From positions 1-42,865 of the forward strand of contig JAYEMR010000111.1 of NCBI GenBank assembly GCA_034718215.1: DNA of 42,865 bases. The letters run 5' to 3'. Both the position numbers and the translations under genes were made by a program. Every line of letters starts with the position of its first letter. The first letter of the stretch is position 1. This document shows, piece by piece, positions 34,933-42,732 of this stretch. The stretch is from Chloroflexota bacterium (lineage in GTDB: Bacteria > Chloroflexota > Anaerolineae > JAYEMR01). The notes under the pieces were generated by a model. The model was not told the DNA's origin. It saw only the letters and a list, made by a program, of their open reading frames with translations, and ran no database searches.

Positions 34933-34964
34933 CCCTGGTTGCGCAGGTATTCAGCGGCAGAAAA

Positions 34965-35009
34965 GCCCGATTCACCTGTGCCTGATCAGGTGCAGGCATC
35001 GGGCGCTGC
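34965..35009. repeat. REP-like hairpin GCCCGATTCATCGGGC interrupted by a 22-bp CCTG...CAGG unit with CA duplication
   Basis: gcccgatt-CA-[cctgtgcctgatcaggtgcagg, 34975-34996]-CA-tcgggc. Confidence 0.75.
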
Positions 35010-35026
35010 TCAGTAGCTGGGCGATT

Positions 35027-38000
35027 TCATCGCCCAGTGGTTGCTCTGCGCACACCCAGGGTAATGCGATCCCCCTCCAGCTCGAAGCTTTGGACATAGG
35101 CCCTCGGCGGCGATGGTCCCTCCACCAGGTCGAGTGAGAGTGTCTCGGCCTGGATGTAGGCCGCCTGTTCCGGGTCCTCCATGACCTCAGCCAGTTGCCC
35201 CTCCGCCTGATAGTAGGTGGTGATGCGGTCCTCGATATTGAAGTCGGCCCTCTTGCGCATGTTTTGGATGCGGCGCACCAGATCTCGGGCCAGCCCCTCC
35301 CGCTCCAGCTCCGGCGTCAGGCGAGTGTCCACAGCCACGATGATGCCTCGCTCCTCGGCCACAGCATAGCCCTCACGAGCATGGGTGCGCACCTCCACCT
35401 CCTCCGGCAGCAGCTCAATGGATTGATCCTCCACCTGGATGGCTATCGGCACCCCAGCCTCAACCCGCTGGGCCAACTGCTCAGCGTCCATGCCCGCTAC
35501 TGCCTTCTGCATTTTGGGGAACAATGAGCCATACTTGGGCCCCAGCAGCTGAGGGAGCAGATGGGTCTCGTAGCTCACCAACTCTCCCGCCCGCTCCACA
35601 AAATCCAACCTTTTGACATTCAACTCATCCATTATGATCGCCGACAGCCGATCCAGGCGCTGTCGCTCGCTCTCACTGGCCAGCACCCGCGCTCGGGCCA
35701 AGGGCTGACGCAGTTTCAGGCCCGCTTGAGAGCGCGCCGAACGGCCCAGGCTGGCCGCTCGGATAGCCAGCTCCACGTCCCTCGCTAACTCCTCATCAAT
35801 GAGCGATTCATCGGCCACTGGCCAGTCGTTGTGGTGCACACTCTCCGGAGCCTTCTCATCCGTGGAGCGCACCAGATTCTGATACATCGCCTCTACGAAG
35901 AAGGGTGTGAAGGGAGCCAGAACCTTGCACAGTGTGGTCAGCACCCTGTAGAGCGTGCGATAGGCGGCGTCTTTGTCCGCGTCCTGTTCGCTCTTCCAGA
36001 ATCGGCGGCGGGAACGGCGCACGTACCAGTTGCTCAATTCGTCAATGAAGGCCTCGATGGGAGCGGTGGCTCCATAGACATCGTAGTCGTCAAGGTGCTC
36101 AGTGACCTTCTGTACCAGCACTTGAAGCTCGGAGAGGATCCATCTATCGAGTAATGAGTAACGCCTGCACCCGTGGCGCAGGCACAGGTGAGTCAATGGG
36201 TCAGCCTTCGTTACCCCACCCGGCTCCCAGCCGTCAATGTTGGCGTAGGTCACGAAGAAGGAGTAGACATTCCAAAGGGGGATCAGGAAGCGCCGTCGCG
36301 TCTCATCGGCCAGGGCGTAGCCGAAGCGGAGGTCTTTCTCGGGCCGGTGGGAGCAGAACATCCAGCGCATCACATCCACTCCCATGTTCTCAGCCGCCTC
36401 ATCGAACCAGATGGCGTTGCCCCAGCTTTTGTGCATCTGCCGGCCATCCTCCGCCAGGAGCAGGGCGTAGGAGAAGACATTGCGGAAGGGAGCCTTACGC
36501 TCCATGATAGTGCTCATAGCCAGGAGGGAGTAGAACCAGTTTCGGAATTGAAGCAGGAAGGTCTCGCTGATTAGATCAGCGGGGAACCATTTCTCCCAGT
36601 ACTGGCGGTCGCGGTGGTAATTCAAGGTGGAAAAAGCCACGATTCCCGCGTCCAGCCAGGGATTTCCCACGTCGGGAACGCGGGAGGCGGGAGTTCCGCA
36701 CTTCGGGCAGCGGATCTTCACCGCATCTATCCAAGGGCGGTGAGGAGAATGCCCCTCGAACTCCTCCCAGCCCTCGACGGCCCGCTCTTTAAGTTCCTCC
36801 TTGCTGCCGATGACGGTGAAATGGCCGCACTTTGGGCACTCCCAGATGGGCAGGGCTAAGCCCCAGTAACGTTTCTTGGAGATCATCCAGTCCTGCATGT
36901 TGCGCAGCCAGTCCATCTCCCGGTCGAAGCCGAAGCTCGGAATCCAGCGGGTATTCTGCATCACCTCCATGATCTGATAGCGGAGGTTGCGCTTTTTCTC
37001 CTCCTCGGTCACCTCCTCGTAGCCCTTGTCCAGCTGATCGCCCATGTCAATGAACCACTCATCCACCAGACGAAATACCAGCTCCGTGCCGCAGCGCCAG
37101 CAGACGGGATAGCGGTGGGTGTAATCCTCCACTTTGTACAGCAGCCCCTTGCGTTCCAAGTCCTCGAAGATAGGCTCTGCGACCTCGGCCACATTTAGGC
37201 CCGTGAGCCAGTCGAACCCATTGATGAAGACTCCGGACTCGTCCAACGGCGCGAGCACAGGCAGGTCGTGTTCCTTGCTGAGCTCAAAGTCCTCAGCGCC
37301 GCAGCCAGGCGCGATGTGGACCACGCCCGTGCCCTCCTCCTCGCTCACCTCGTCCCATAGGATCACGCGATGGGGATAGGGACGCTCCTGCTCCTGGGCA
37401 ACCGCCAGGGTTGCCCCTACGGCGGGTAACTCATCGAAGGGCCCATCGTAGGCCCAGTCCTCCAGCGCCCTCCCCGGCATCTCCGCCAGCACCTCGTAGT
37501 CGCCGTCCAGGATGTGTAACGTGCCCTTGCAGAGGTAGAGGATCTCATCGTTATGGCGGACCTTGACGTAGGTCAGGTCGGGGCCGACGGCGGCAGCGAC
37601 GTTGGAGGTGAGGGTCCAGGGGGTGGTGGTCCACACCAGAAGCGATTCGTTTTGACGAGCTCGGAGGGGGAATCGCAAGGTGATGCTGGGGTGAGTCAGC
37701 TCCTGGTAGCCCTCGGTGACAATTTCGTGCTGGCTGATCCCAGTGCCGCAGCGGGGGCACCAGGGCATTACATCGTGGCCTTTGTAGATCCAGCCCTGTT
37801 CATGGCACTTCTTGAGGGCCTCCCAGATGTGGTAGTTGTTATCATCAGAGAAGGTGAAGTAGGATCCTCCAAGCTCGGGGGTGCCCAGCCGCCCGACGAT
37901 CTGCTCCACCGTGCCGGCCACCTTGCCTCGGGTCCCCTGGACGCTGATAACCTGCTCCGGGTCTTCCTCCATCTTATCCCGTAGCCAGCGCAGGAAATCG

Positions 38001-38440
38001 GGGTCATTCCAGTCCATCCAATATCCCAGCCGCTGAGATTGCTCGGTCTGCACGGCAGCATATTTGAGCGCCCGCTGTTTGCAGAGGTTGACGAAGGGGC
38101 CGATGCCGTAGGCTTCGATATCGCGCTTGGACTCGAAACCCAACTCCTTTTCCACCTCCACCTCGACCCACAGCCCTTGGCAGTCGAAGCCATTCTGGTA
38201 GCGGGTGTCGTAGCCTTTCATGGCCCAGTAGCGGTGGAAGAGATCCTTGTAGGTGCGGCCCCAGGCGTGATGCGTGCCCATGGGATTGTTGGCTGTAATG
38301 GGGCCATCAATGAAGGACCAGCGCTCGTTGCCTTGGTTCAACTCCCGGCGCTTCTCAAAAGCCTCGCTTTCCTCCCACCACTTTAAGATTTCTCTTTCCT
38401 GAGCCACGAAATCAACGTGAGTTGGCACCTCTTTGAACAT
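35027..38440 (-). CDS. ileS: Isoleucine--tRNA ligase, type 2 (GxHH signature)
   Basis: DGPITAN..GTHH, GFDCQGL, WTTTPWTL editing motif, GTGVVHIAPG, DWMISKKRYWG, QMHKS, LSNWYVRRSRRRFW, EGLARDLVRRIQ. Confidence 0.96.
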   Translation of the reverse strand: MFKEVPTHVDFVAQEREILKWWEESEAFEKRRELNQGNERWSFIDGPITANNPMGTHHAWGRTYKDLFHRYWAMKGYDTRYQNGFDCQGLWVEVEVEKELGFESKRDIEAYGIGPFVNLCKQRALKYAAVQTEQSQRLGYWMDWNDPDFLRWLRDKMEEDPEQVISVQGTRGKVAGTVEQIVGRLGTPELGGSYFTFSDDNNYHIWEALKKCHEQGWIYKGHDVMPWCPRCGTGISQHEIVTEGYQELTHPSITLRFPLRARQNESLLVWTTTPWTLTSNVAAAVGPDLTYVKVRHNDEILYLCKGTLHILDGDYEVLAEMPGRALEDWAYDGPFDELPAVGATLAVAQEQERPYPHRVILWDEVSEEEGTGVVHIAPGCGAEDFELSKEHDLPVLAPLDESGVFINGFDWLTGLNVAEVAEPIFEDLERKGLLYKVEDYTHRYPVCWRCGTELVFRLVDEWFIDMGDQLDKGYEEVTEEEKKRNLRYQIMEVMQNTRWIPSFGFDREMDWLRNMQDWMISKKRYWGLALPIWECPKCGHFTVIGSKEELKERAVEGWEEFEGHSPHRPWIDAVKIRCPKCGTPASRVPDVGNPWLDAGIVAFSTLNYHRDRQYWEKWFPADLISETFLLQFRNWFYSLLAMSTIMERKAPFRNVFSYALLLAEDGRQMHKSWGNAIWFDEAAENMGVDVMRWMFCSHRPEKDLRFGYALADETRRRFLIPLWNVYSFFVTYANIDGWEPGGVTKADPLTHLCLRHGCRRYSLLDRWILSELQVLVQKVTEHLDDYDVYGATAPIEAFIDELSNWYVRRSRRRFWKSEQDADKDAAYRTLYRVLTTLCKVLAPFTPFFVEAMYQNLVRSTDEKAPESVHHNDWPVADESLIDEELARDVELAIRAASLGRSARSQAGLKLRQPLARARVLASESERQRLDRLSAIIMDELNVKRLDFVERAGELVSYETHLLPQLLGPKYGSLFPKMQKAVAGMDAEQLAQRVEAGVPIAIQVEDQSIELLPEEVEVRTHAREGYAVAEERGIIVAVDTRLTPELEREGLARDLVRRIQNMRKRADFNIEDRITTYYQAEGQLAEVMEDPEQAAYIQAETLSLDLVEGPSPPRAYVQSFELEGDRITLGVRRATTGR
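36162..36190. repeat. In-frame CCTG...CAGG element inside ileS
   Basis: Minus strand CA-[cctgtgcctgcgccacgggtgcagg]-CG, 25+2 = 27 bp, encoding HLCLRHGCR(R); shares CACGGGTGC with the 66-bp element. Confidence 0.75.
37396..37420 (-). repeat. GTAG-type REP in frame inside ileS
   Basis: GTAG-GGGCAACC-CTGGC-GGTTGCCC: GTAG tetranucleotide plus a perfect 8-bp stem. Confidence 0.7.
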
Positions 38441-38542
38441 GCTTCTCCTCCTATTAACAACGAGCTCACAACGGACTGGAGAATCAAACAGACGAAGCCT
38501 ATCCGTGCAGATGGGCTTGCCCATGCGGACGGAAAAGCCCGT

Positions 38543-42521: not shown

Positions 42522-42732
42522 CAGCTGGTGATTACCCACATCTCACCTGTACCAGGTACTGGCAGATTCGAGGCTGAGGCGTCCTCGCCGAAACTGTTCC
42601 CCTGTCCGTCGGACCCTGTCTGCCTGTACCCGATCACCTGTACCCGATCAGGTGCGGGCAGGCACGGGTGCGCAGGCAGGAGACGGGATGGCCAGCATAC
42701 CCCTCGGCGGGGAAGCCTCGTTCCTCTTGTTG
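42522..42732. repeat. Repeat B, filled copy with an 87-bp nested insertion (42601-42687)
   Basis: Aligns to 16379-16503. The insert is a 21-bp palindrome split by the 66-bp element (42615-42680). Confidence 0.9.

Follow-up and report, generated by a model that had tools for sequence, protein, structure and literature searches.

A 27-nt palindromic insert in ileS of a Chloroflexota genome as a probable copy of a very small mobile DNA element

We analyzed a stretch of DNA of 42,865 nt (hereafter, the window), which is the entire contig C111 (JAYEMR010000111.1) of a metagenome-assembled genome (MAG) of a Chloroflexota bacterium of the class Anaerolineae (GCA_034718215.1, denoted G000), and in particular a short palindrome located within ileS, the gene of isoleucyl-tRNA synthetase (IleRS). 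This palindrome very probably represents a non-autonomous mobile DNA element of very small size, a copy from a family denoted C, that was moved in trans and has been kept in a tolerant loop of the protein. Comparison with a same-genus sister genome (G001) shows that the element integrated in ileS at a T-CR site after the split of the two species. Elements of this kind are added precisely, as a core plus 2 nt at T-CR; they are nested in one another, fall into several families with common termini and, within genes, have either orientation and use several frames. There are approximately 100 such mini-insertions in the genome (1.9 Mb in 147 contigs, 59.5% G+C, estimated completeness of 87%), and they add loops of 8-9 amino acids to many core proteins.

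The insert in ileS and its empty site

The host gene (35027..38524, minus strand) is an intact open frame, and its product matches TIGR00392 in an NCBIfam profile search (E 8e-213), with the best stretch covering the insert site. A single ileS copy was detected. In the coding sense, the site reads GAC CCA TTG ACT CAC CTG TGC CTG CGC CAC GGG TGC AGG CGT TAC TCA TTA CTC GAT AGA TGG (D P L T H L C L R H G C R R Y S L L D R W), versus GAC TCA TTG ACT CGT TAC TCG TTA CTC GAT AGG TGG in the ortholog from G001, which has identical flanking codons and is without the 27 nt; the identity of the two genomes across the examined part of IleRS is 80%, as is that of the closest public ileS records. An earlier examination of the window by sequence alone (the sequence-only reading) placed a palindrome in frame in ileS, at 36162-36190, and estimated that it adds about nine codons, HLCLRHGCR. 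The coordinates, the translation and the TIGR00392 match confirm the placement, and the comparison with the same-genus ortholog sets the addition at exactly 27 nt, i.e., nine codons. The peptide was also described as lying between YANIDGW and LDRWILS; it is indeed inside that interval, but the two motifs are not its direct neighbors, as 12 residues (EPGGVTKADPLT) precede it and four (RYSL) follow it. Two results extend that reading: the insert consists of a 25-nt core and a repeated target dinucleotide, and the genome contains commoner sister families that add 24 nt.

The 25-nt family C core, CCTGTGCCTGC-N9-GCAGG, occupies positions 36164..36188 (minus strand); it is an exact match to the family pattern, is recognized by the covariance model of the family with E 4.6e-7, and is missing in the G001 ortholog. 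Read in the coding sense, filled and empty DNA differ such that the core has a CA at its 5' side (36189..36190, minus strand) and a CG at its 3' side (36162..36163, minus strand), the latter corresponding to the target dinucleotide of the empty site in the sister species and in the metagenome relatives L110 and L111. Because the core and one dinucleotide together make 27 nt, the reading frame is preserved wherever the element lands, and since the ileS copy is free of stop codons in all frames, nine additional residues are encoded. An inverted-repeat search and folding revealed a hairpin, the stem of which is 9 bp and the loop 3 nt (36163..36183, minus strand). Its arms, 36163-36171 and 36175-36183, are 9 nt each and are 89% complementary as DNA; in the mRNA strand the sole mismatch becomes a G-U pair, so that a 9-pair stem is formed, with a folding energy of -17.6 kcal/mol (z = -2.3 against shuffles).

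The insert peptide is missing in all 28 aligned genome orthologs, with a gap of exactly nine residues, as the sequence-only reading had expected, and in G001 the same gap is seen at the DNA level; no ortholog was found to carry a homologous peptide without the palindrome, the pattern that would have spoken against an insertion. A regular-expression search of 160 further ileS loci (80 from metagenomes and 80 from genomes) detected the family element in none of them; eight of these loci were aligned by eye, and all eight are without the peptide. The only match with three mismatches among the 160 loci, in L140, looks like chance. At the site, four metagenome contigs of 79-82% identity read either ACT CGT or ACT CAT; for example, L110 and L111 have ACT CGT, and L113 has ACT CAT. 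A tandem duplication of five residues (SLTRYPLTR) is found in L112 and L113 exactly at the position of the element. Contigs from two sequencing runs of one study span the ileS site with no gaps; the assembly itself may derive from one of these runs. An empty allele was not found among the contigs of three runs of that study, the third of which yielded short unrelated pieces.

In an AlphaFold2 model of a 333-residue segment, the insert (residues 171-179) is predicted to be in a loop (156-182) between two helices (128-155 and 183-204). The mean predicted local distance difference test score (pLDDT) is 77.7; it is below 50 at residues 163-169 and 171-176 and above 90 in both helices. Thus, the model places the insert in a low-confidence loop flanked by two confident helices, consistent with the surface loop anticipated from the sequence. 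The alignment with the Thermus IleRS (1ILE) has an 8-residue gap at the insert, and among relatives the loop varies from 9 to 37 residues (measurable in 120 of the 160 related loci). The tolerant place would then be the length-variable loop that leads from the catalytic domain to the anticodon-binding helical domain.

It should be noted that this IleRS (35027-38524; loci L191-L269) is of a subtype in which MHKSWGN replaces the usual KMSKS. Over 333 residues, the IleRS proteins of many Bathyarchaeia and of other archaeal MAGs are 62-66% identical to it and are as near to it as most Anaerolineae IleRS, a likeness that hints at an inter-domain transfer.

Three families of short elements

The pattern GCCTGC-N9-GCAGGC is found 13 times in the genome versus zero times in the reversed genome, and spacings of 7, 8, 10 and 11 give no matches. 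The longer pattern CCTGTGCCTGC-N9-GCAGGC has 10 exact copies, and 16 with at most one mismatch, the reversed control being zero again. Two of the 16 matches (C42 and C140) belong to a different repeat, and the other 14 are the strong genome-wide hits (all E <= 4e-6) of a covariance model built from a family alignment (A1). The family C core is 25 nt long and has conserved termini, 5' CCTGTGCC ... GGYGCAGG 3', around a 9-bp hairpin. All copies are single units, and 5 of the 14 are in frame within genes.

Clean inserts of nine codons are present in the PyrF/PyrE protein (C6), QISHL[TCACAPCAG]KSQ, where the peptide is missing in G001 and in all three homologs, and in a Gfo/Idh/MocA oxidoreductase (C115), FLARF[ACTSAAGTG]ENG, where it is missing in G001 and in all six homologs. 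Two transposase frames of the NF041680 family also bear family C copies, and the paralogs on C128 and C122 differ by exactly the insert. Representing each locus as filled and empty sites, we have ACT-CA[core]CG-TTAC versus ACT-CG-TTAC in ileS, TT-CG[core]CG-AG versus TT-CG-AG in the oxidoreductase gene, and CT-CA[core]CA-AA versus CT-CA-GA in pyrFE. All three empty sites have one T-CR in the target, and the filled sites have CR on both sides of the 25-nt core. The flanks of the 18 copies aligned in A1 are CG/CG in 11 cases, CA/CA in four, TG/CG in two and CA/CG in one (ileS), so that the two sides agree in 15 of 18. The pyrF-pyrE genes are fused in one frame, the decarboxylase followed by the phosphoribosyltransferase (C6:18751-20184; L069-L071), with a match to NF004034; the fusion is present here and in three relatives.

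Weak hits of the covariance model led to two sister families that have termini in common with family C. These are family A, CA-CCTGTGCCTGATCAGGTGCAGG-CA, and family B, CA-CCTGTACCCGCGCAGGTGCGGG-CA; the cores are 22 nt, and each family adds 24 nt. With at most two mismatches, 50 copies of family A and 34 copies of family B were found (control, 0), and element heads number approximately 150 in the genome versus nine in the reversed control. Copies of family B are nested in reversed orientation within copies of family A, where they are flanked by TG..TG. For 98 copies of the three families, the flanks are CA/CA in 68 cases, CG/CG in 20, mixed CA/CG in two and other in eight.

Open frames of at least 150 amino acids contain 32 of 100 copies. 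We scanned 20 such frames: 16 match NCBIfam families and four have no family match. A single NCBIfam alignment crosses the element in 12 of the 20, namely FchA, DnaX, GlyRS, DnaA, DnaN, NrdJ, M20 peptidase, PyrF/E, two oxidoreductases and two transposases; ileS is the thirteenth gene with a family alignment that crosses an element. Genic copies of the sister families are found only in stop-free frames. The palindrome thus belongs to a dispersed family that is present in frame in other conserved genes (pyrFE and the oxidoreductase), and its sister families are in frame in dnaA and others. The encoded peptides vary with frame and orientation (HLCLRHGCR, TCACAPCAG, ACTSAAGTG, RLRMGCRHR, SPVPAALAQA). 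Because genic copies of the family occur in either orientation and use several frames, the peptide would be a by-product and not a designed module.

A pattern covering families A and C was applied to 401 sampled genomes of the class. The numbers of hits are 29 in G000, five in G175, four each in G001 and G395, and two in G306; the other 396 genomes have 0-1 hits, as do the controls, so that the spread is patchy. G001 has three clear family C copies, including one whose site is orthologous to that of a G000 copy, and G031 has a single copy, which is in frame in an AAA ATPase gene.

Two further elements are located in the window. The spacer between recN and ileS contains a family A element (core CCTGTGCCTGATCAGGTGCAGG flanked by CA..CA; 34975..34996, plus strand), which is part of a longer repeat (aaaagcccgaTT...ggcgctgctc; flanks 34961-35011) that recurs on C69 and C3. 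A family B-like element, CCTGTACCCGATCAGGTGCGGG, also flanked by CA..CA, is at 42637..42658 (plus strand) and has two mismatches to the B core. Elsewhere in the genome, a DNA methyltransferase frame (C58:5914-7128; L087) bears three copies (family A, two; family B, one), and the genes of NrdJ (C147) and GlyRS (C132) bear several copies as well. A shorter relative, CG + 19 nt + CG (21 nt), was found at C32:21079-21103 (L060), 70 nt upstream of the second Y1-like gene of the genome, and appears to be placed, in frame, within the C-terminal domain of an OmpR-type response regulator (…LREKLARACGAGELD…). The 12-mer palindrome GCCTGCGCAGGC, with 16 occurrences in G000 versus zero in the reversed control, probably belongs to additional repeat variants, e.g., cctgtctgcgcaggcagg.

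Mobilization and alternative explanations

The mover of the elements would be an enzyme that acts in trans and makes or needs a 2-nt overlap at CR, and this overlap could result either from a staggered cut or from a strand exchange between matched dinucleotides. Purifying selection would then leave copies that are in frame, free of stops and located in tolerant loops; as the units are multiples of three in length, selection would tolerate the element in surface loops. As for the type of enzyme, we would give about one third of the weight to a DDE-type staggered cut, about one third to a dinucleotide-matched recombinase, and the remainder to an HUH enzyme or another single-strand route; these weights are a judgement and not a calculation.

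The genome holds two PF01797 (Y1) genes, on C76 and C32. The first (IS200-like, C76:3732-4370, L059) has on either side a different repeat, with hairpins GGAGTACAACTCC and GGAGTTGCACTCC, which appears to be its own. This gene and its repeats look like a separate system of the type formed by repetitive extragenic palindromes (REPs) and REP-associated tyrosine transposases (RAYTs); the same hairpins flank a family C copy on C102. The second gene was considered as a RAYT of the elements. It was not found in the element-bearing genomes G001, G395 and G128, and has counterparts of 60-77% identity in the element-free genomes G024, G010 and G039; since it does not co-occur with the elements, the RAYT hypothesis is unsupported. 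A parent insertion sequence was not recognized either: pairing of 5' and 3' termini located 400-4000 bp apart produced 1224 pairs, which is uninformative because of the density of elements.

Several observations weigh against a mobile element moved in trans. No mobilizing enzyme was found when both Y1 genes were examined for flanking repeats or co-occurrence, and no filled/empty polymorphism within the species was seen in the contigs of one study, so that recent movement of this copy is conjectural. The flanks of the ileS copy are unequal (CA and CG). Moreover, the dinucleotide varies with the subfamily: among exact A cores, 22 are CA/CA and one is CG/CG, and in family C 10 are CG/CG and one is CA/CA. 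The flanks are therefore not explained by a plain duplication of the target through a staggered cut that is blind to sequence; the target dinucleotide seems not to be blindly chosen but to match the element. The absence of stop codons in all six frames, which was considered as a sign of design, is found in 13 of the 14 family C copies, but also in 46% of unit shuffles. Finally, the genome is 87% complete and may contain a second ileS, and the nine-residue peptide is predicted from DNA.

The elements may be codon-phased selfish elements, whose additions in multiples of three (24, 24 and 27 nt, with the dinucleotide included) evolved to colonize the coding DNA of a gene-dense genome and which spread by a dinucleotide-matched integration of a hitherto undescribed kind; we consider this stronger version possible, although doubtful.

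Other explanations of the insert were compared with a mobile element. The insert might have been co-opted, either as a Cys/His/Arg-rich loop that serves IleRS, e.g., by a metal or RNA contact, or as an mRNA hairpin that tunes translation or decay of ileS. The peptide holds two Cys and two His, the copy is kept in two samples, and perfect pairing, at -17.6 kcal/mol, is achieved only in the mRNA strand, where the mismatch is G-U. However, the same core yields unrelated peptides in other genes and in both orientations, the folding z-score is only -2.3, the loop is predicted at low confidence, and every relative functions without the insert; we regard co-option as improbable. A lineage-specific expansion of the loop in place, by slippage or quasi-palindrome template switching, would be in line with the variation of loop length (9 to 37 residues) in relatives and with the 5-residue tandem duplication at the same spot in two close relatives; the look-alikes elsewhere in the genome would then be due to a mutational or methylation bias like that of HIP1. 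Against this, near-identical 25-nt cores are present at 14 unrelated places, elements are nested in one another, and at three independent orthologous sites the difference is precisely one core and 2 nt. These three empty sites largely refute an origin in place, which appears very improbable.

The remaining two explanations deny that the insert is translated or that it exists. Removal of the 27 nt from the mRNA or their bypass by the ribosome has precedents in mitochondrial byp elements and in phage T4 gene 60, and a stable hairpin within the coding sequence is what such a mechanism might use. The insert is in frame and stop-free, so bypass is not required, and the genic copies of the sister families are confined to stop-free frames, as plain translation predicts; the probability of this explanation is negligible. 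An assembly or binning artefact could be suspected in a MAG fragmented into 147 contigs, with repeats short enough to confuse assembly graphs; nevertheless, independent contigs from two runs span the site with no gaps and the frame is kept exactly, and we give an artefact hardly any weight. A small element moved in trans and kept in a tolerant loop is thus by far the most probable source of the ileS insert.

Relation to known repeats and significance

By size, the nearest known kind appears to be the small dispersed repeats (SDRs) of cyanobacteria. Elhai and colleagues reportedly observed, in 2008, insertion of SDRs into one another and their precise presence or absence at orthologous sites. 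SDR1-8 of Nostocaceae are 21-27 nt long, have hairpin potential, are dispersed and apparently mobile, and have no known enzyme, as described by papers that cite the original work (PMC5861425, PMC3116915, PMC2884548). Among HIP1-enriched cyanobacterial genomes, one report states that SDR-like repeats were not found outside Nostocaceae (PMC5861425). The elements described here resemble SDRs, as the latter are described, in having cores of 22 and 25 nt, dispersed hairpins, precise presence/absence and nesting. They differ in the host, Anaerolineae instead of Nostocaceae, and no sequence likeness is evident from these descriptions. They have CR on both sides, units of 24 or 27 nt and, in core genes, many in-frame copies, features that SDRs may share.

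REPs and REPINs are palindromes of 20-40 nt with many copies, some of which are intragenic, often in replication and repair genes, where loops or linkers are presumed to accommodate them (PMC3733652, PMC3116915). Intragenic REPs are described there as bearing GTAG or CGTC tags, and Chloroflexi are listed among the phyla with GTAG repeats (PMC3733652). An imperfect palindrome of 20-40 nt in many copies is also what we observe. In contrast to REPs so described, the elements have no terminal GTAG or CGTC; they have an invariant head CCTGT after CR, and CGTCG is located upstream only in copies embedded in a larger repeat. Family C units are single and partly genic (5 of 14) and are not extragenic inverted doublets; no flanking or co-inherited RAYT was found, and a direct dinucleotide repeat is present at both ends.

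The sequence-only reading compared the insert to Rickettsia palindromic elements (RPEs), palindromes of about 100-150 bp found in frame in unrelated conserved genes, the peptides of which are apparently compatible with protein function (PMC10969869, PMC3733652). The comparison is apt for behavior, i.e., in-frame insertion into conserved genes that remain intact, and fails for membership: the insert is 27 nt, roughly five times smaller than the RPEs of these descriptions, and the host lineage is unrelated. Each RPE family is said to encode a conserved peptide, whereas here frame and orientation vary. The further suggestion, that a miniature analogue adds peptide loops to this proteome, is supported by the dispersed family, the empty sites and the in-frame copies in core genes.

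[quoted passage not shown] Like MITEs of this description, the present elements are non-coding, have what may be a short duplication at the site, and have termini that are partly inverted repeats (CCTGYRCC at both ends). Unlike them, the whole element is 22-25 nt, and no parent insertion sequence was recognized. The presence of CR on both sides, with one copy in empty sites, is reminiscent of a MITE target-site duplication, yet the dinucleotide follows the subfamily. We did not find the family described in literature on Anaerolineae miniature inverted repeats or on Chloroflexi REP/RAYT systems, and it is called undescribed on that basis only.

The results indicate that a parasitic loop of nine residues can be absorbed by an enzyme that is both essential and highly conserved, and in this lineage dnaA, dnaN, dnaX, nrdJ, glyQS and pyrFE were hit as well. 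The insertions provide a natural map of tolerant positions in core proteins together with a mechanism that creates loops; they are also a warning for annotation and alignment-based phylogeny of MAGs. The elements are far below the size thought to be needed for recognition by a transposase, so that the identity of the mover could reveal new DNA-handling chemistry, and the clean presence/absence sites, along with the small number of element-bearing genomes among the 401, make this question open to comparative genomics. If the elements are indeed codon-phased, the mobilized substrate of only 22-25 nt would rank with the smallest known mobile DNAs and would steadily supply essential proteins with new surface loops.

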